64,000 nucleotides of DNA from Candidatus Helarchaeota archaeon. GTDB lineage: Archaea; Asgardarchaeota; Lokiarchaeia; Helarchaeales; RDOG01. The translations under genes were made by a program, and so were the position numbers. Where the stretch lies: contig JAHPZH010000002.1 in the NCBI GenBank assembly GCA_019058315.1, forward strand, positions 32,001-96,000, in the 5' to 3' direction. Numbering within the stretch: position 1 is the stretch's first letter; every line of letters begins with the position of its first letter. Of this stretch, positions 1 to 9,643 are shown piece after piece. The notes beneath the pieces are model-generated. The model saw only the letters and a list, made by a program, of their open reading frames with translations. It did not search any database and was not told the origin of the DNA.

Positions 1-793
1 TTAAAAAGTCCACATAAGATCCGGAAATTAGAAATAATCCAGCAGTATGAATAGGAACATAACCTTTTATGTAATATTGATAAAGCTCTCGCAGATAACT
101 CCTGATTTCATTGTTTATTATAGCAACTTTTCGCAATCTTGAATCTGTTATAGTAGATCCGGATAAATTCTCTAATGTTGTTATGAAACGATTAAGTTCA
201 GAAATAACTAAATCTAATAAATGAGGGTTAGAAGAATCTCCATAAGGTTTCTCCAGATAAAAAATTGGTTTATTTTTACTAATTCGTTCATAAAATTTTG
301 CAAAATGCACACAGTAATTCCCCTCAAATCCCCCCATAATTAAATCAATGATTGGTAAATTCCTCATAAACGCCCCATAACAGATACGTGTCTGAACACA
401 AGTGTCCATGTAAAATTCTGCTTTCTCAGCTACGTTTATTAGATTAATAAATATCCTTGAGAATTCGTCTCTGTTGAAACTATCTATAAATGCATTTGAC
501 ATTCGATCTTCATTTTGAATATAATATCGTATGAAATGTCTAAGGATATGGAGACGATTAAATACATGTGCAACACCATAATATTGCTCGTAAGGAAACC
601 TCGCTAAGCGTGGTAGGAAGACTGGAAGCGTGTTTTTTGCAGCAAATACTAATTGCATGGGTGGTAAAAACCCCCCAACTATCTTTTTTCCGCGTTTATG
701 GGCATTTGCAATTTTAGAAGGACCAAGTATATATTTAATACCAAGATCAAGCATGCTTTGCATCGAAAAATCTTCAATTTGGTGATTAATCAA
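1..793 (-). CDS. 2-hydroxyacyl-CoA dehydratase family subunit (HgdA/FldB/BcrB-like), partial, runs off the window start
   Basis: Not in the ORF track; translated manually: ...KRGKKIVGGFLPPMQLVFAAKNTLPVFLPRL...DTCVQTRICYG...GNYC..., clearly paralogous to 5800..7035 (KKIVGICLPPCDLIYAFQNTLPIFPLRL; DQCVQIRTIYG). Start is TTG at 793 (overlapping the upstream stop) or ATG at 763. Confidence 0.8.
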   Translation of the reverse strand, partial: MINHQIEDFSMQSMLDLGIKYILGPSKIANAHKRGKKIVGGFLPPMQLVFAAKNTLPVFLPRLARFPYEQYYGVAHVFNRLHILRHFIRYYIQNEDRMSNAFIDSFNRDEFSRIFINLINVAEKAEFYMDTCVQTRICYGAFMRNLPIIDLIMGGFEGNYCVHFAKFYERISKNKPIFYLEKPYGDSSNPHLLDLVISELNRFITTLENLSGSTITDSRLRKVAIINNEIRSYLRELYQYYIKGYVPIHTAGLFLISGSYVDFL

Positions 794-1896
794 ATAATCA
801 TCTCCAAAAATGCCTCTATTCTGGTTTGAATTTGTCCAACAGTCGATTCAGCATAATCTCTGTCTAAGTCCAGAACTGGTATATTTTTTTCAGTCATTTC
901 TTTCCGGAAATCCGTCTTTAAATTTGAATATGAGTCACAGAATTTTAAGGTATGATTGATTATGCCAGAAGCTCGAAATTTTTGATATAACTCTAGAATT
1001 ATCGGAATTCGGGAGTCAGGAATCATTCGACCACATAGATTTCTACAAAGATATCGTGTAGCGAGGGCTCTAAATGGATCTGAATCTGTTATATTCACAT
1101 CTTCAAGAAAATAATCCGAAGAAAAGCAGAGATCATCTGCTACTACCAAACCCCCACAAAGTTCTTCAATAGTCTCTATTAGAGGATCTCCAAGAGTTAT
1201 TACGCTCCCTGTTAAAAAAATTCGGGTTCCCGAATGATTTGGAGGGTTTTTCCTTATTTGCTGTAAAAAATCTTGTAATTTTGGTATCATAAATTTAGGA
1301 CCTAATAATAGAGCTTGACAGACTAATTTGTGAATAGTTTGTCCACAAACTGGAGGATTGGGCTTCTTGCGAAAATCATTTATTTCTCTAAAAAGTGAGC
1401 GAAGTTGATTATATTCTTTGATTGCGACTAAAAGATTTTTGGTAGTAATTTTATTTCCTGTTAATTTTTCAAGATAATTTGTTAGTTTATGTAATTCATT
1501 CAAGTAATAATCAAAAACTAAACCGGTACTACGATGTGGGATAATTATTGGCATAGAAGGTATTTTAAAATATTCTAAATAGTTCGAAACATTCTGAACT
1601 CCATTACAGAATGTTCCAACAATCATTGTATCTATTAATGAATAAAGTGGATGTTGTTTCTCTAAAAAACCAAGAGTTGCTCGACCAAATGGACAAGTTG
1701 TAGCTGATAAATATTGATCTCCAATCTCTTGTTCATCTTCTCCTCCTAAAATAAGTCTTAATGGAATTGCACCTGCAGCTAACACCAATTCATCGGGGAA
1801 AATTCCATGTTGAACAACACCAACGATTTTCGAGCCCTCATCTTTATAATTTTTTAGGACTTCGATTGTCTCCTTTATTATTATTTCTATACTCAT
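790..1896 (-). CDS. 2-hydroxyacyl-CoA dehydratase family subunit (HgdB/FldC/BcrC-like)
   Basis: PDELVLAAGAIPLRL, CPFGRA, GGLVVADDLC, LKFCD and the C-terminal GQIQTRIEAFLE signature. Confidence 0.88.
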   Translation of the reverse strand: MSIEIIIKETIEVLKNYKDEGSKIVGVVQHGIFPDELVLAAGAIPLRLILGGEDEQEIGDQYLSATTCPFGRATLGFLEKQHPLYSLIDTMIVGTFCNGVQNVSNYLEYFKIPSMPIIIPHRSTGLVFDYYLNELHKLTNYLEKLTGNKITTKNLLVAIKEYNQLRSLFREINDFRKKPNPPVCGQTIHKLVCQALLLGPKFMIPKLQDFLQQIRKNPPNHSGTRIFLTGSVITLGDPLIETIEELCGGLVVADDLCFSSDYFLEDVNITDSDPFRALATRYLCRNLCGRMIPDSRIPIILELYQKFRASGIINHTLKFCDSYSNLKTDFRKEMTEKNIPVLDLDRDYAESTVGQIQTRIEAFLEMII

Positions 1897-1963
1897 GATT
1901 TATTTCTAAACCTTCTATAAATTTTCAAAATTATGTAAATATGAATATTTTAAGGTTATATAA

Positions 1964-2017
1964 TTATATATGTTCTAAAAATATTTCTATTTTTGTCCGA
2001 ATTTGGTCTAAATCGCT
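1964..2017 (-). pseudogene. 3'-end remnant of a 2-hydroxyacyl-CoA dehydratase subunit gene
   Basis: Minus strand reads SDLDQIRTKIEIFLEHI*, versus SDLEQIRTRIEAFLETI* at the end of 4683..5792. The codon just upstream is TAA where the intact gene has CAA. Confidence 0.75.
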
Positions 2018-2145
2018 TTATCGCTAGATCTGTTGTTAATCGTCAATTTTTTTAATTTCTTTAGTAATTCTATTTAGACTACAAGTTTGAAAGAATTTGT
2101 CAAGAATCATCTTTTTATTCAGCAAAGACTATTTAAATTACTAAT

Positions 2146-3468
2146 TTGTTTAGAGAAATTATTTACTTCCTATTAGATACCTCAGATTTATTTCAATTAG
2201 ATAGGATGTCATTTAATATGCATGAAAAAAACCTACCTTATATAGTTAATGCGGAATTAATTAGTTCGGATGAAGCGAAACAGGTTAGACGTGAAGCATT
2301 AAATGAATTAAAAATACTTTTGAAAAAAATGACTGCAGATTTAACAAAATTAACAGTTGCTGGTAAAAAAAGCAGTCAAATGAATCTTAATGCATTAAAA
2401 TCGATACAAAACAAATTGGAGGTTCTTAGAGAAGACACAGAGAAAGCTGAAGAGGATAGTTTAAACACCAAAAAGTGGATAGGACAGATCAAAATAATAA
2501 TGAATCTTTTTAATCAAATCAACGATGAGGAATTAAAACCTTCTTTAATTGAACCTGAGACCAATGTATTATTGGTCCAATTTAAGATTGCCTTAATTGC
2601 TGATGCGAATATCATTATTAATAATCCAGATAAGGCTCTAATTGATTATAAGGATTTCACCTTCTCAGGTGAATATGAACGTCTCGGAAAGGAGTTCCAA
2701 ACGTTATTCCCTAAATTTTTTGGGTATCGAGTGGAAATAGATTCCAGATTCCATGGCTTTTCAGTTGATTTGGAGGGAAGTCCTCCAACTATCAATGCTA
2801 TAATAGAATCACCCGTAAAGGCAATCGAACCACTAATAATAGAATTTCTTAATTGGCAACTACGTAAGATTGGGTTTACAATGATATTTGAGTTCACTAT
2901 AATAGACCAAAATGGGATGATTTGTGATATTGATTTTATCGATTCTGAGGATCCTCTTCAAACAATCATAGAATATCAGCAAGAACAAGTCGAACCATCG
3001 AAGATCGATGCAAAGAATCTGAATAAATTCTTAATAGGTCAGTTGAAAACGGAAGTAGATAATAGTTGGAAAAAAACGTCTTATGAAAGAGCAGAGTTTT
3101 ATCCCCCCGCTGGTAAGATTACCATAAAGTCTGTAGGTCAATGGTTGTGGATCAAATCTCAGGTCATATATGGCGGGGTGCGCTGGGATCCTTCAACGGA
3201 TAGGTCTGGTGGGGATTTTGAATCGACAGAAAGATGGTATGATTGGGTCGGGTTCGCAAAATCCGCACCTAAAAAAGTCTCCCACTCTGAAGAATTGGAT
3301 AAATGGGCAGAAATCAAAACCAGTTATTATATTCACAATCTTCTCCATGAAGGACGTAAGATTATCGAAATTACAGAAGGAGGAGAGGTGAAAATTCAGG
3401 TTGATATATTTCGATATCCAAATGTCGAATCTAGTTATGAACAAATAACGTTGAAAAAATCCGAATGA
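2146..3468 (+). CDS. hypothetical protein with N-terminal coiled-coil
   Basis: 440-aa ORF with no recognised family; true start may be ATG 2206 or 2218. Confidence 0.6.
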   Translation: MFREIIYFLLDTSDLFQLDRMSFNMHEKNLPYIVNAELISSDEAKQVRREALNELKILLKKMTADLTKLTVAGKKSSQMNLNALKSIQNKLEVLREDTEKAEEDSLNTKKWIGQIKIIMNLFNQINDEELKPSLIEPETNVLLVQFKIALIADANIIINNPDKALIDYKDFTFSGEYERLGKEFQTLFPKFFGYRVEIDSRFHGFSVDLEGSPPTINAIIESPVKAIEPLIIEFLNWQLRKIGFTMIFEFTIIDQNGMICDIDFIDSEDPLQTIIEYQQEQVEPSKIDAKNLNKFLIGQLKTEVDNSWKKTSYERAEFYPPAGKITIKSVGQWLWIKSQVIYGGVRWDPSTDRSGGDFESTERWYDWVGFAKSAPKKVSHSEELDKWAEIKTSYYIHNLLHEGRKIIEITEGGEVKIQVDIFRYPNVESSYEQITLKKSE

Positions 3469-3528
3469 TTTTTTTTGTAATTACCAGATTCTAGATTAGA
3501 AACAATGGTTAAAATCAAAAAAGATATA

Positions 3529-4644
3529 TTATTCTATTATCTTTTTATGTTTTTTCATTCTTTTACCTGCTAGATATAGTATACAGCAACCTGGGCAGAT
3601 AGACATTAATTTGTGTTGATTCATATAAGAACGGAATATTCGATATTTTTCCCCGTTCCAAATCTCTTCGAAACTATGCTCGTGTAAATTACCCATCACC
3701 AAATCATAAAAAATATGACATGGAGCCAAATCTCCTGAGGCTGTAATATCGAGTCCTACCCAAGGAACTGGGCAAGAACGGTATTTATCGGTCATTTCGT
3801 CCCAATTAGCCCCGAGATAAGCTTTAAGATTTTCAGGAGAGAAGGTGGGTGGTAAAAATAATGTAAATTTTCCGAGTTTTTTTAATTGTTTATTTACTTT
3901 ATTTGCTTGCCGAGCTAGCTCTTTTGTGTCCATTTTATTAAAATATTCAGGAGAACGAACAAATCCTCGCCAATATTCTTCGCTTGTAATCCCTAATTCG
4001 GATCTAAGCATCTCTGCATAAGCAATTCCCATCTTTTTAGTAATAAAATTCTCCATCTGAATTGTTATCCAATTGATAGCTGAAAGATCAAGATCTTTAA
4101 GGAAAAATTGCTCTATATATCGGTAATTTTCAGGAGTCACTGTATAAATGATGCTAATTAAGGGACTTTGTTTTCCAGAATCTTGTTTTTCTTGCTGAAG
4201 GGCTTCAATACCTTCAATAGCCTTACTATAGCTACCATTCCCACGTTGCGAGTCATTTACTTCACGAGGACCGTCAATGGAAACTCTTATAGAATCGAAT
4301 CCAGTTTGAACAAGCATAGCTGCGTGTTTTTTCAAGAGTGTACCATTTGTTGGAGTATCTAAAAATGATCCTGCATCCTTCATTTCTCGAATTATTTCTT
4401 CCAAATGGGGATGCATAAGAGGTTCACCACCAAAAAAACTATAAGAGGGTTTGGCTGGGGCTAAATCGTGAACAACTTGTTTAATTAAATCAAATTCTAG
4501 AATTAATGGTTTTTTATTAGATTCGGGATTAGAATAACAACCTTTTTCACCCCAAAAATAACACATTTTACAACGAAGATTACAAGTCTCCGTAAGTTGG
4601 ATTGCAAGATTTTTAGGTAATTTGACTTTTTTATTTTCTGTCAT
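3529..4644 (-). CDS. radical SAM protein with C-terminal SPASM/Twitch domain
   Basis: CNLRCKMC (CxxxCxxC), GGEP, TNGTLL, VSIDG; C-terminal CPVPW...PCH...GNL...CPGCC. Confidence 0.9.
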   Translation of the reverse strand: MTENKKVKLPKNLAIQLTETCNLRCKMCYFWGEKGCYSNPESNKKPLILEFDLIKQVVHDLAPAKPSYSFFGGEPLMHPHLEEIIREMKDAGSFLDTPTNGTLLKKHAAMLVQTGFDSIRVSIDGPREVNDSQRGNGSYSKAIEGIEALQQEKQDSGKQSPLISIIYTVTPENYRYIEQFFLKDLDLSAINWITIQMENFITKKMGIAYAEMLRSELGITSEEYWRGFVRSPEYFNKMDTKELARQANKVNKQLKKLGKFTLFLPPTFSPENLKAYLGANWDEMTDKYRSCPVPWVGLDITASGDLAPCHIFYDLVMGNLHEHSFEEIWNGEKYRIFRSYMNQHKLMSICPGCCILYLAGKRMKKHKKIIE

Positions 4645-4682
4645 ATTATTTCCGTAAAATTAAATTTTAACAAATTAATATG

Positions 4683-5792
4683 TTATATAGTTTCTAAAAA
4701 TGCTTCTATTCTTGTTCTAATTTGTTCTAAATCGCTTTGGGCATATTCTCTAACAACGGTTAGAACGGGGAATTCTAATTTTTCTTGAAAATACTCTTTA
4801 AATGGATAATTTTTCAGTTGATAAGGATCACAAAATTTCAAGTTGTAATTAATAATACCTAGAGCATTATAAGCTTCGTAAATACCTTTAATAAACTCAA
4901 ATCTTGATGAATCTGGATACATTCTTGCACAAGGTATTTTGGTTAAATATCTTTCAGTTAGGGATTGAATTGGATCGCTATTCATTACGACATTATCCCA
5001 ATAATATCTCATTCCACTGCAAATATCATCTCCAACAACTAAACCATCTAAACTTTCAATAAATTCTACTATATGATCCCCAAATGCAATATTACTTCCA
5101 GAAATAATGACTCTTTTACCATTTAAATTTCGTCTTTTATTTACTAATTGAGGAAAAATCTGACGTAACTTTTGAAGCATCTCTTGTTTTTCATTAAGAA
5201 AAGTCTCTTGGATCAGATATTGACTCTCAGTTCCAGAAATTGGTGGATTATTATTCATTCTTAACTCGTTTATTTTTTTTAACTCCGTCCTCAACTCATT
5301 ATACAATCTTATCGAATTTAAAATATCATCATTTGATATTTTTGAACCAGTAAAAATTTCAATATTTTTCTTAAAAAGTAAAATTTCTTTATAGAAATAT
5401 TTCATTGATGGAGCATCTGTTTTTCTGGGAGTGTCTAAATTAATAACTGGAATTTTTAGATATTTTGAATAATCTTGAATTGACTCCATGCCGTTACAAT
5501 AATTTCCGGTTATCAACAAATCACATTGCGAATAAAGTGGGTGATTATCCAATAAAAATCCCAATGTTGATCGGGCATAGGGACAAGTCCCGACCGACAT
5601 ATATTCTCCACCTTTTAAAACCATATCTTCAACCCCCCCTAAATTTAATCTTAAAGGAAATGCTTTTGAGGCATATATGATTTCCTCAGGGACAAATGAG
5701 CATGTAAAGCCTATAATTTTAATTCCTTCCTTTTTCAAGGTTCGGATTTTTCCAACATATTCATTTAATGATGGCTTTTCAATTATAGGCAA
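4683..5792 (-). CDS. 2-hydroxyacyl-CoA dehydratase family subunit (HgdB/FldC/BcrC-like)
   Basis: CSFVPEEIIYA, CPYARS, GDDICSGMRY, LKFCDPY, QIRTRIEAFLE. Confidence 0.9.
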   Translation of the reverse strand: MPIIEKPSLNEYVGKIRTLKKEGIKIIGFTCSFVPEEIIYASKAFPLRLNLGGVEDMVLKGGEYMSVGTCPYARSTLGFLLDNHPLYSQCDLLITGNYCNGMESIQDYSKYLKIPVINLDTPRKTDAPSMKYFYKEILLFKKNIEIFTGSKISNDDILNSIRLYNELRTELKKINELRMNNNPPISGTESQYLIQETFLNEKQEMLQKLRQIFPQLVNKRRNLNGKRVIISGSNIAFGDHIVEFIESLDGLVVGDDICSGMRYYWDNVVMNSDPIQSLTERYLTKIPCARMYPDSSRFEFIKGIYEAYNALGIINYNLKFCDPYQLKNYPFKEYFQEKLEFPVLTVVREYAQSDLEQIRTRIEAFLETI

Positions 5793-5799
5793 ATTTTAT

Positions 5800-7035
5800 T
5801 TACCCCGTTAACAATTCAATAAATGCTCCAACTCGAGTCTTTAATTGGTCTAAATGCTCTCCAAACATATAAAAATCATTTAAAAGCACGGGAATTCCTA
5901 ATTCTTCCTGAAGCTCATCCTTATATAATCTTGCAGCAGGTGAGAATCGTCTACAACCCCAACATGAATTGTAAATTACCCCATCTATTTTAAAATCTTT
6001 AATAAGCTTTTTAGCAAAACGTAATCTGGGCTGTGTTCTCCAACTATGATAAATTTCTAATTGATGCTTAGCAATATTATTTCTAATATCACCTCGGATA
6101 TTAAGATCTACTTGTGGATATACCCATTCATACCTCATTGTTACAGCTATAATTATACCCCCCAAAGTTTCAACTATGTCTGGTAATTGAGGTTCCATGG
6201 TTCCATTTCCTGCGATTAAAATTCTAGGAGCTTTATCATCAACAATACTATCTCCTCTATCTATTTTTTCAGCCATCTCATCATAAAGGTCATTTAATAA
6301 CCGTTTTAAGAATTGAGGGTCGGAAAACCAATCAAATATTCCATAATTTAAAATATTTATAATTGTGCTAGCATGAATTGGAATAACTTTATTTTTTAGC
6401 AATTCATAGACTTTCCACCATTTGCTTCTAATTTCATTTGACATTAAAACAGAATCTCTTAAATCATCATCAGATGGGCGAAATCCGGTCAAATTTACGA
6501 GTCTTTCAAATAATAAGTCAAATTCATCCCTCATTTTTTCAAAATCATGTTCTCTAGTTTTATGAGGTGCATCAACAAGCTGGACTGGAAGAAAATTTTC
6601 GTTAATTATTTCCCAAATTTTGGTTTGTTTATCACATGTTTGGGGTCCAATCCAAAAATCCATTAGATCCTTTGTAAGTAATATACAACCGTAAATAGTC
6701 CTTATCTGAACACATTGATCAGTCTCACATCCAAATGCTTCCCCTTCATTGACTGCATTTTTAAGACTAATATCAGCATTACTCAAAGCATCAAAGGTTC
6801 CCAAATGTAATCTAAGTGGAAAAATCGGTAATGTATTTTGAAAAGCATAGATTAAATCACAAGGAGGTAAACATATACCTACAATTTTTTTACCTTTACG
6901 CCTATTTTTCTTAATAAAAGATCGTGTATTTATCCAATGACTGATTAGATCCCTAACAGCTTTAAAATTATTAATATCCTTCATTATCCCTAATTCTGTT
7001 TCTATATCTTTAAACAAATCAGTCAAATGTAACAT
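5800..7035 (-). CDS. 2-hydroxyacyl-CoA dehydratase family subunit (HgdA/FldB/BcrB-like)
   Basis: TCD, IDGVIYNSCWGCR, LGIPVL, QLKTRVGAFIELL. Confidence 0.85.
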   Translation of the reverse strand: MLHLTDLFKDIETELGIMKDINNFKAVRDLISHWINTRSFIKKNRRKGKKIVGICLPPCDLIYAFQNTLPIFPLRLHLGTFDALSNADISLKNAVNEGEAFGCETDQCVQIRTIYGCILLTKDLMDFWIGPQTCDKQTKIWEIINENFLPVQLVDAPHKTREHDFEKMRDEFDLLFERLVNLTGFRPSDDDLRDSVLMSNEIRSKWWKVYELLKNKVIPIHASTIINILNYGIFDWFSDPQFLKRLLNDLYDEMAEKIDRGDSIVDDKAPRILIAGNGTMEPQLPDIVETLGGIIIAVTMRYEWVYPQVDLNIRGDIRNNIAKHQLEIYHSWRTQPRLRFAKKLIKDFKIDGVIYNSCWGCRRFSPAARLYKDELQEELGIPVLLNDFYMFGEHLDQLKTRVGAFIELLTG

Positions 7036-7324: not shown

Positions 7325-8308
7325 TTATTTAGGATATTTATGCTTTTTTTCTTTAGATTTGTATATTATTCTTGCTAATTCTTTAAAAGCTTTTTCAACA
7401 TTCTCCCCAGTCTTTGCTGACGTTTCTATATAAAGATAACCTTTTTCTTTTGAAAAGTTTTCTGCTATTTCTTGTGAGACTTTACGTTCAAGATCAATTT
7501 TATTACCAACAAGTAGAACTGGAATTTCACCGAGATTCTCATAAAGTTCATTTATCCATTTAGGAATATGTTCGAAACTTTTAGGATCTGTAACATCATA
7601 AACCACAAGACATCCTGAGGCTTCTTGATAATACATTTTTCGCAAAGTTCCATATTTCTCCTGCCCTCCAGTATCCCATACATTCATTTTTGCTGTAATT
7701 TTTTCAACACCTGGCATAGGTTCAGTTCTATAATAGTGAAATTGAAGTTCCTTTACACCAAAATCTACGCCAAGTGTACTTTTTAAATCCTTTTTAAAAT
7801 AATCGTCAGTAAATCTAACTTTAATAGCTGTTTTTCCAACACCCGAATCCCCTGTTTCAATAATCTTGAAATTGAATACACTTCGGGCAACTATCATCGC
7901 TTCTCTTTCTGCCCATTCTTTGATTTTATCACCTTTTATAAGGTCATTTAAATCTTTTTCTAAATTTGATGGTTGTATTATTAAAAAATATCCTTTTTCA
8001 TAGGTATTTTCACTCAAATATTTTAAAGCGTCTAAATTTAAATCCTTGATATCTCCTGTTACAGGGCTATTGAATGTCACCATTCCATGTTCTGACTCAA
8101 TTGCAGCAAAAGGTTTTCCTTTTTCAACTCGATCTTTTTTAATAAAATCAATATCTCTTGCGTTTCCAATAAAATCAATTCCTAACTCATTTAACCCAAT
8201 TTTGCCATTTTCTGGATTAATATAAACGTGTTGAATTGTATAGGCTAAATCATCAGGAATTTCGTAACGTCCATCACCAACAATAACCATTTCTTTCTTT
8301 TCTCCCAT
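7325..8308 (-). CDS. fusion of a glycine-cleavage-H (lipoyl-carrier)-like domain and a Rab-like small GTPase
   Basis: N-terminus IPDDLAYTIQH...IGL...GKPFAAIESEHG...SPVTG...YEKGY matches the GcvH pattern. C-terminus has G1 GDSGVGKT, LGVDF, G3 WDTGGQE, G4 NKID, G5 ETSAK. Confidence 0.85.
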   Translation of the reverse strand: MGEKKEMVIVGDGRYEIPDDLAYTIQHVYINPENGKIGLNELGIDFIGNARDIDFIKKDRVEKGKPFAAIESEHGMVTFNSPVTGDIKDLNLDALKYLSENTYEKGYFLIIQPSNLEKDLNDLIKGDKIKEWAEREAMIVARSVFNFKIIETGDSGVGKTAIKVRFTDDYFKKDLKSTLGVDFGVKELQFHYYRTEPMPGVEKITAKMNVWDTGGQEKYGTLRKMYYQEASGCLVVYDVTDPKSFEHIPKWINELYENLGEIPVLLVGNKIDLERKVSQEIAENFSKEKGYLYIETSAKTGENVEKAFKELARIIYKSKEKKHKYPK

Positions 8309-8498
8309 TATTTTTATGGTTCATTTTATTTATATCATTAAAATAGATTAGCATAACAATTTTGACATTCTTTACAATATTTCAATTATATTGCAATGTT
8401 ATAATGTTTTAAATATTAAGTTTTTTGATTACTAATAAGATTTATTTTATAGAATTTAGGTTAAATTTATATCAAATGATGTAAAAGAGGCATGAAAT

Positions 8499-9341
8499 AT
8501 GTTTGGTTACATAATTTTACGAGACATTCCAAAAGAACAAGCTCAATTAGATTTATCTATTTATGAAATTAAGGGAGGTTTTCGTGGCTTTGCAGAAGTT
8601 TCACCAGGAATTCATTATGTTAGCGTTGATGTGGGTGGAAAGATGCATAAGGGGTTCTGGTGCTATTTAGAACCTTCCAGTGTAGTTGTAAAAGTTTATG
8701 ATTACGAAAACGATGAATTTAAAGATGATACTTCTGAAAATGAGGAGCAGTTTTCCAACATGGCTTTAAGTGGAGCTATGAATCGAGCTCTTATTCCGGT
8801 CATGCAACGTAATGCAAAGATGTCAACTGAATGGTTAAAATTAGTATCTCACATTAAAAAAAATAATTTTCCGATATCTCTGAATAAAGAAACACCCATG
8901 GAACCTCCTGAAAATCTCTCACCAGAAGAAATGTCAGAATACTATCTTAAAACACACAAATCTCGTTTTGAACAAGCTTTTTATGAAACTCATGGTGGAA
9001 ATAAAGAGAAATTTTTAGCCGAAATCCAATTTGCATTTGTACGTTCACTTGTTCATAAACCAGATGATGAGGCATTAGAGCGATGGTTGCATCTCTTACA
9101 GTCCATTTATAATGCAGGAGAGAGAAGTATTGATGCTGAACCTGAATTATTCCCTTTAATTATTGATATAATAATAACACAATTCAAAATTCTACCAGAT
9201 GATATGTTTTCATCTAATAGCAAAGTTATAAATCGTGTTCAATATTTAATCGAAGATATGATTGATACGGGAATTAAAGATGTTAAAGAAAAAGCTAAAG
9301 AGTTTGCTGAATATCTAAAATCAAGGGGTGTTTCAATTTAA
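8499..9341 (+). CDS. AAR2-like protein (A1 cistron-splicing factor / U5 snRNP assembly factor family)
   Basis: LDL..YEI.GGFRGFAEVSPGIHYV...GFW resembles the AAR2 N-domain (F.G.K.IPPG.HF). FLAEIQFAFV...ALERWLHLLQ resembles the AAR2 C-domain (LLGELQFAFV...W..LL). Confidence 0.7.
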   Translation: MFGYIILRDIPKEQAQLDLSIYEIKGGFRGFAEVSPGIHYVSVDVGGKMHKGFWCYLEPSSVVVKVYDYENDEFKDDTSENEEQFSNMALSGAMNRALIPVMQRNAKMSTEWLKLVSHIKKNNFPISLNKETPMEPPENLSPEEMSEYYLKTHKSRFEQAFYETHGGNKEKFLAEIQFAFVRSLVHKPDDEALERWLHLLQSIYNAGERSIDAEPELFPLIIDIIITQFKILPDDMFSSNSKVINRVQYLIEDMIDTGIKDVKEKAKEFAEYLKSRGVSI

Positions 9342-9376: not shown

Positions 9377-9643
9377 ATGAGTGAAGATAAACCACGATTT
9401 TTTGTTATCAAAACAGTAAAGGGTAGAGAAAATGCAGTTTTGGATAACATAATGGAAAGCAGATTGAGAGATAGCATAATTGCGGTCTTAATTCCAGCGA
9501 CGTTACATGGATATATTTTTATTGAAACTGAAGATCCCGCTACTATCGTATCAGAATTTCCAAAATTCTCTATTAAGACTCGTCTTATTTCTCAAGTGCA
9601 ATTTAAGGATATAGAAGAGTTCATAATAAAATATAATTTTTAA
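9377..9643 (+). CDS. stand-alone Spt5/NusG N-terminal (NGN) domain protein
   Basis: FFVIKTVKGRENAV...IIAVLIP..LHGYIFIE...V.F.DIEEFI; ends before any KOW domain. Confidence 0.75.
   Translation: MSEDKPRFFVIKTVKGRENAVLDNIMESRLRDSIIAVLIPATLHGYIFIETEDPATIVSEFPKFSIKTRLISQVQFKDIEEFIIKYNF

Follow-up and report, generated by a model that had tools for sequence, protein, structure and literature searches.

Which task can a homologue of AAR2, a factor for assembly of the eukaryotic spliceosome, perform in an archaeon? Archaea have no spliceosome. The question is raised by a gene at 8499..9341 (+ strand) in a 64,000-nt stretch of DNA from a Candidatus Helarchaeota archaeon (contig JAHPZH010000002.1), hereafter the window. 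An earlier note, made from the sequence alone, had taken the gene product for an archaeal AAR2 homologue and had offered two readings of it: a chaperone that ancestrally served a group II intron/RT- or RNase H-like partner and was later recruited to Prp8, or a member of a scattered prokaryotic AAR2-like family.

Family assignment and predicted fold

The gene is an ATG-to-stop open reading frame of 280 aa and is single-copy, with one PF05282 match in the whole assembly (5.79 Mb, 12 contigs, 94% complete). Both Pfam AAR2 domains are present in the right order and score more than twice the curated cut-off of 23.6 bits. The N-terminal beta domain AAR2_1st (PF20981, residues 5-122, 8511..8864, + strand; strands E3-E76 in the model) was detected with E 6.4e-14 and 52.7 bits, and the C-terminal helical ARM/HEAT-like domain AAR2 (PF05282, residues 137-276, 8907..9326, + strand; helices H142-H275) with E 6e-13 and 49.5 bits. 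The AAR2-like motifs on which the earlier note had relied, GGFRGFAEVSPGIHYV, GFW, VVVKVYDY, FLAEIQFAFV and EALERWLHLLQ, are all found in the translation of 8499..9341 in the order given there. A phmmer search of solved structures with the single sequence detected human AAR2 (7pjh_A) at 8.4e-5. When a profile built from 67 homologues was used instead, human AAR2 was matched at 4.4e-15 across its two domains, and yeast Aar2p was reached as well (about 3e-4). The organism names of the closest homologues, and of same-phylum genomes with the gene, point to an Asgard host.

The AAR2 signature (D..P, FRG, PGxH, GFW/F, ExQFAF, W, Q) is present. Residues in common with eukaryotes are D9, P11, D18, F28, R29, G30, P36, G37, H39, G52, F53, W54, L98 and W112 in the N-terminal domain, and E175, Q177, A179, F180, W196, L199, F218 and Q228 in the C-terminal domain. 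The alignment has 47 positions with a majority residue of at least 60% in prokaryotes and eukaryotes alike, and the residue is the same at about 30 of these; the share of sequences that keep D18, R29, G30, G37, H39, E175, Q177 and W196 is at least 60-100% in prokaryotes as well as in eukaryotes.

A single-sequence AlphaFold2 run was poor (pLDDT 48) and was replaced by a model built with a 67-row homologue alignment, for which pLDDT was 94.6 and pTM 0.90. Foldseek against the PDB gave 11 significant matches, every one Aar2, with 7pjh_A as the best (E 6.6e-12, TM 0.78/0.70) and the next unrelated match at E 0.04. An exhaustive VIA-align search placed human 7pjh_A at Z 24.0 (rmsd 2.5 A, 263 of 280 residues aligned) and yeast Aar2p (4ilg_A) at Z 16.5 (249 residues aligned), and all other matches were generic HEAT/ARM helical repeats covering residues 120-280 only. 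Since the significant matches of both programs are Aar2 only, and the rest lie at Z <=8.1, the fold assignment is secure. Pfam, profile search, Foldseek and VIA-align all agree on the homology proposed in the earlier note, and judged by sequence and model it is certain that the product of 8499..9341 is an AAR2-family protein.

Our protein search returned 110 homologues, several of which bear the NCBI name "AAR2 pre-mRNA splicing protein"; the MAGs of origin carry the labels Hodarchaeota (86% identical), Promethearchaeota (83%), Helarchaeota, Heimdallarchaeota and Lokiarchaeum GC14_75. In their passages on AAR2, Vosseberg et al. 2023 report archaeal and bacterial orthologues; the taxa in their supplement are Lokiarchaeota, Gerdarchaeota, one Helarchaeote and, among bacteria, cyanobacteria together with one planctomycete and one member of the Chloroflexi (PMC9887622). 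The same passages describe the prokaryotic AAR2 proteins as uncharacterised and AAR2 as the sole spliceosomal protein family with one-to-one prokaryotic orthologues (PMC9887622). Because of the named NCBI records and this report, the Asgard AAR2 relative is real but already known; the gene in the window, of the same family and from the same kind of host as the orthologues of Vosseberg et al. 2023, is one further AAR2 member and leaves the existing picture unchanged. The AAR2 passages of that paper are without a structure model, an analysis of the tail and gene contexts, all of which are given here. Because AAR2 is the only spliceosomal family for which those passages report one-to-one prokaryotic orthologues, its pre-spliceosomal function bears on how the spliceosome was assembled in eukaryogenesis.

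The VIA-align superposition sets model residues 1-280 against residues 17-363 of human AAR2 and 1-317 of yeast Aar2p. The Asgard protein stops 4 residues past the PF05282 domain, at the position of human residue 363, and since this is the end of the human helical domain it has no C-terminal tail. Three elements of the alignment are confined to eukaryotes: an N-terminal extension, an internal loop of 60-90 residues and a C-terminal "WDF...APVV" tail. Compared with human AAR2 (PDB 7PJH), the Asgard protein has the two-domain fold and the signature residues of both domains in common at an identity of only 19%, whereas the N-terminal extension, the internal loop (159-201) and the tail (365-384, interface II) are found in the human protein only. 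Yeast Aar2p (PDB 3SBT, 4ILG, 4I43) likewise has the fold in common, but its tail beyond 317 is missing in the Asgard protein. By alignment and model, the Asgard protein is a minimal two-domain, tail-less AAR2 core.

The missing tail matters for binding. In human AAR2 the tail (365-384) follows an N-terminal domain (10-158) and a C-terminal one (202-364), and in the crystal the N-terminal domain stays clear of PRPF8's RNase H-like domain (Preussner et al. 2022, PMC9629490). Interface I is the edge of the C-terminal domain, at helix alpha5 with I225 and M230, and interface II is the tail, so that AAR2(1-364), cut off before it, fails to bind PRPF8's RNase H-like domain stably; the yeast Aar2p tail links the RNase H-like and Jab1/MPN domains of Prp8 and blocks Brr2 binding (PMC9629490). 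As a tail-less core, the prokaryotic form would be incapable of Prp8 binding in the human style. Helix 142-151 (8922..8951, + strand) is the counterpart of human helix alpha5 in the phmmer alignment to 7pjh_A, which is a positional equivalence only; M145 and L150 align with I225 and M230, and their hydrophobic character is kept across Asgard homologues.

Distribution and phylogeny

Of 400 species genomes of the same phylum (Asgard), 12 gave a match to the Pfam model and 14 to a family-specific profile, one of the latter being a weak 58-residue match; we count 13-14 carriers. Seven carriers belong to one genus (7/12 genomes in family f18), and the numbers elsewhere are 3/135, 1/31 and 1/3. The gene was not found in the sister genus of the window's own family (94% complete), nor in several single-contig genomes. 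An exhaustive HMMER search gave 222 clusters at 50% identity, eukaryotes included. Bacterial members 42-47% identical to the Asgard protein come from Nostoc (46%), Spirulina, Chloroflexi, a Leptospira-labelled MAG and others, which bears out the mention of AAR2-annotated proteins of bacteria in the earlier note. A metagenome scan gave 0 relatives with the single protein as query and 31 loci with the alignment as query, and a scan of viral contigs found no relatives. With sparse Asgard carriers and bacterial homologues, the description as a scattered prokaryotic AAR2-like family holds: the gene is accessory, patchy in Asgard archaea, and has close relatives in bacteria.

Some individual records deserve mention. 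In a Heimdall-labelled genome the AAR2-like gene is split by TAG and TGA stops (G085:C107:30934-31765, L011), and this broken copy probably reflects either a pseudogene or a fault in the assembly. Contig DATKTP010000259.1 (L020/L052) is titled Candidatus Deferrimicrobium sp., a bacterial name, in conflict with the placement of the genome in the order of this Asgard archaeon and with its archaeal-type neighbours (CDC48). One AAR2-like protein, P0085, is labelled Spirochaetales bacterium.

Maximum-likelihood trees were computed under LG+C20+F+G4, and a clade of Asgard and eukaryotic sequences was evaluated by AU tests. Eukaryotic AAR2 forms a single long-branched clade (support 100/100), and the Asgard sequences group in one cluster whose backbone is weakly supported (81-86). 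A split of the eukaryotes together with P0138 and P0156 from all other prokaryotes has support 96/88-93, with both of these rows long-branched; P0156 belongs to a tandem pair of copies that lies behind a giant toxin-type gene. With the unlabelled rows left free, the Asgard and eukaryote clade had p 0.82 in the AU test and the constrained tree had the higher likelihood; with all other rows excluded it had p 0.24. The clade was rejected in neither case. From trees of these sequences one cannot tell whether eukaryotic AAR2 is linked to the Asgard or to the bacterial proteins. The earlier note had held that a nesting within a bacterial clade with patchy Asgard distribution would speak against an ancestral role. 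The patchy distribution is what we observe, and the nesting is neither shown nor excluded by the trees.

Gene neighbourhoods in archaea and bacteria

Gene contexts were compared across 59 related loci. In the window, an AT-rich divergent intergenic region of 190 nt (8309..8498) separates the AAR2 gene from a gene of 327 aa on the minus strand (7325-8308), which encodes a GcvH-like domain (PF01597, 1.1e-09) fused to a Ras-family GTPase. We infer a promoter within 8309..8498, and a purine-rich AAGAGG, read directly from the sequence, lies about 8 nt 5' of the AAR2 ATG. Downstream, an NGN-only Spt5 paralogue of 88 aa without a KOW domain (9377..9643, + strand; Pfam Spt5-NGN 2.3e-10) follows the AAR2 stop on the same strand after a gap of 35 nt in which a T-run is absent, and it is possible that the two genes are co-transcribed. 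A convergent SDR gene also neighbours the AAR2 gene. A Helarchaeota-labelled locus (L049) is syntenic with the window, with two HGD-D genes upstream and an SDR gene downstream. Among the 59 loci, L049 included, the NGN gene was found beside no other AAR2-like gene, and it was rejected as a conserved partner since its adjacency is confined to the window locus.

Ras-family genes adjoin AAR2-like genes in three arrangements (the window, L022 and L070/L081/L082/L089). Such GTPase genes are abundant in Asgard archaea and the neighbours have only a generic 42% GTPase-domain identity among them, hence we claim no Ras-family link. In 18 Loki-type loci, including L021, L022, L026, L050, L051, L063, L068-L072, L074 and L077-L081, an HFX_2341_N + winged-helix (DUF6293) gene lies next to the AAR2-like gene in divergent orientation, with varying outer flanks. 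Haloferax cas genes are repressed by the founding member of the HFX_2341 type (PMC11434293). The HFX_2341_N family is widespread among archaea, and in the present genome its single gene lies on a contig other than that of AAR2, so that the AAR2 gene of the window is without the divergent upstream regulator. Across the 59 loci no neighbour was found that is conserved in all Asgard lineages.

In bacteria, a different neighbour recurs. The AAR2-like gene starts 22-76 nt after a giant gene in L015, L030 (Nostoc), L047, L055 and L084/L085, where the giant proteins reach up to 1,903-1,993 aa; in the Nostoc pair the giant gene is at 202-5913 and the AAR2-like gene at 5989-6828 of L030. L090 has one gene between the two, and in L047 two tandem AAR2-like copies lie downstream of the giant gene. 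The giant proteins have a hitherto undescribed C-terminal domain of about 400 residues in common, which ends 57 long proteins with varying N-terminal parts (eCIS_core/DUF4157, PG_binding_1, annexin). It carries an invariant GS..SDxD plus a later D, a motif that makes it nucleotidyltransferase-like and is reminiscent of the Pol-beta type. This reading is motif-based only, because the domain matched no Pfam family, no solved-structure relative by sequence and no convincing Atlas neighbour. Over five independent pair lineages (L015/L030, L085, L055, L047 and L090) the domain and the AAR2-like protein lose identity in parallel (65/69, 43/56, 26/46, 28/30 and 28/23%).

The pairing is not general, as most bacterial AAR2-like loci are without a giant gene. 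Searched from the side of the domain, L055 has the pair and L054, L058 and L060 carry other genes, and about half of the giants examined in this way precede other genes, encoding WD40 proteins or an unrelated 316-aa protein. Complex prediction for the Nostoc giant C-terminal domain and the adjoining AAR2-like protein gave scores of 0.00, 0.36 and 0.00, to which we give no weight on either side. The domain was not found in the present genome or in four other AAR2-carrying Asgard genomes. As a separate observation, a weak match at chance level (L048, G000:C5:1034504-1037758) fell on the contig of the window, inside an open frame listed with 14,439 aa and without stops; this Asgard genome would thus hold a giant gene of its own.

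A second bacterial arrangement is a fusion. Bacterial proteins of 500-1,080 aa carry one to three TerB (PF05099/DUF533) domains fused to a complete AAR2 module (L037:3901-7134; P0139, P0154, P0170, P0188, P0194, P0159, P0160, P0165, P0185 and P0186), and these TerB-AAR2 fusions form a well-supported clade (100/99). Associations of AAR2-like genes with eCIS-core proteins, TerB and HFX_2341 were not found in the searchable literature, and we regard the giant eCIS-core pairing, the TerB fusions and the pairing with an HFX_2341-type regulator as new contextual leads. None of the three adjoins the AAR2 gene of the window; together, the bacterial and archaeal gene contexts yield concrete, testable partner candidates.

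Splicing link and proposed function

Searching the 5.79-Mb assembly gave no match to PRP8 domain IV (PF12134) at E<=0.1. As the assembly is 94% complete, the absence of the Prp8 RNase H-like domain IV from this genome is probable only. The group II intron maturase domain GIIM was likewise unmatched in the genome, by which a group II intron link is rejected here. Partners of interest in the genome are one RVT_1 gene and seven JAB/MPN genes, none of them near the AAR2 gene, and no conserved RT, RNase H or JAB neighbour was found in the 59 related loci; only L051 has an RNase H gene, which lies some 360 nt downstream. The supplement of Vosseberg et al. 2023 states that the PRPF8 parts bound by AAR2 are missing from intron-encoded proteins (PMC9887622). 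The first reading of the earlier note, in which the ancestral chaperone served a group II intron RT or an RNase H-like partner, finds no backing in these searches, and its extension to RT, RNase H or JAB partners fares no better, with unconserved neighbours and the human-type PRPF8-binding tail missing. Both a C-terminal tail laid across Prp8's RNase H-like domain and a Prp8 partner in the genome, features of a functional AAR2, are lacking here. This context excludes a splicing role: as judged from the genome sequence, the protein cannot take part in U5 snRNP assembly in this Asgard archaeon.

We suggest instead, with a probability of roughly 0.55, that the protein is a non-enzymatic, stoichiometric protein binder which acts as chaperone or inhibitor of a partner. 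The AAR2 core would hold or mask a domain of the partner protein, as eukaryotic AAR2 does, and binding would probably be via the helical domain. We base this on the binding of Prp8 domains, which is the only known activity of the family (PMC9629490), on the helical-repeat C-terminal domain and on the co-diverging neighbour domain in bacteria. The suggestion is weakened by the lack of a neighbour common to all Asgard lineages, and of the giant C-terminal domain in the five carrier genomes searched. Polar residues conserved between bacteria and eukaryotes (D18, R29, H39, E175, Q177), several of them in the N-terminal domain, also count against it.

The bacterial pairs also allow a more specific account, which we find unlikely but worth stating: the protein may be an orphan immunity-like protein, derived from bacterial genes that would neutralise or chaperone the C-terminal domain of the giants, and would protect its host against proteins delivered by neighbours. 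Here we argue only by analogy with the immunity proteins of polymorphic toxins: bacterial AAR2-like genes follow the C-terminal domain of a variable giant, once in tandem, and co-diverge with it through five pair lineages. The terminal position of that domain in 57 long proteins with varied N-termini, its invariant GS..SDxD and D, and the 46% identity between the Asgard protein and the Nostoc copy agree with the account, as does the scattered occurrence of the gene. A patchy distribution is typical of immunity-like genes. Unlike the immunity genes of polymorphic toxins, however, the window gene has no adjacent toxin-type gene, and a position immediately downstream of one is seen in bacterial relatives only. 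Against the account stand also the lack of the domain in this and four other carrier Asgard genomes, the half or so of the giants that precede other genes, the many bacterial AAR2-like loci without a giant, and the putative nature of the domain's toxicity and of its nucleotidyltransferase identity, the latter read from a motif only. Conservation of D18, R29, G30, G37, H39, E175, Q177 and W196 in prokaryotes and eukaryotes could in turn mark a functional site apart from Prp8 binding, in a small-molecule-binding or catalytic protein, and half of the conserved residues do lie in the N-terminal domain, which makes no PRPF8 RNase H-like contact. We judge this to be very unlikely, as only Aar2 structures matched the whole fold and the conserved residues may be purely structural. 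We know of no AAR2 with enzymatic activity.

More doubtful still is an ancestral Prp8-type chaperone binding an archaeal RNase H-like, RT/maturase or MPN-domain protein. The interface-I helix with its hydrophobic residues at equivalent positions, the seven JAB/MPN genes and the RVT_1 gene in the genome, the RNase H gene downstream in L051 and the unrejected clade of Asgard and eukaryotic sequences are all compatible with such a chaperone. It would, however, be without the tail that provides stable RNase H-like binding in human and Jab1/MPN capture in yeast; PRP8 domain IV and GIIM are unmatched in the genome, genes for RT, RNase H or JAB do not recur beside AAR2-like genes in the 59 loci, and bacteria have this protein too, in settings of an unrelated kind. 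A transcription-linked pair with the NGN-only Spt5 paralogue is hardly credible: the confirmed NGN domain, the common strand and the 35-nt gap without a T-run would fit a pair, but the NGN gene is missing at every other related locus, the syntenic L049 too.

Further, alongside the protein binder that we prefer, we tentatively put forward a scenario for the family, which we hold to be rather improbable. Prokaryotic AAR2-like proteins may be cognate immunity or loading partners of the nucleotidyltransferase-like C-terminal domain of giant proteins of the eCIS-core/polymorphic-toxin type. Eukaryotic AAR2, holder of the C-terminal domains of the giant Prp8, would have been recruited from these, and the Asgard copies would be stand-alone intermediates or parallel acquisitions.

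Two minor observations were made downstream of the giants. In L059, an AAR2 N-terminal-domain-only gene (hhalign probability 99.4) lies three genes downstream, beside a gene for Pvc16_N, an eCIS component. In L059 (8732-11437) and L060 (7538-11029), arrays of WD40 genes of about 300 aa, in alternation with small unknown genes, are found downstream of the giants.
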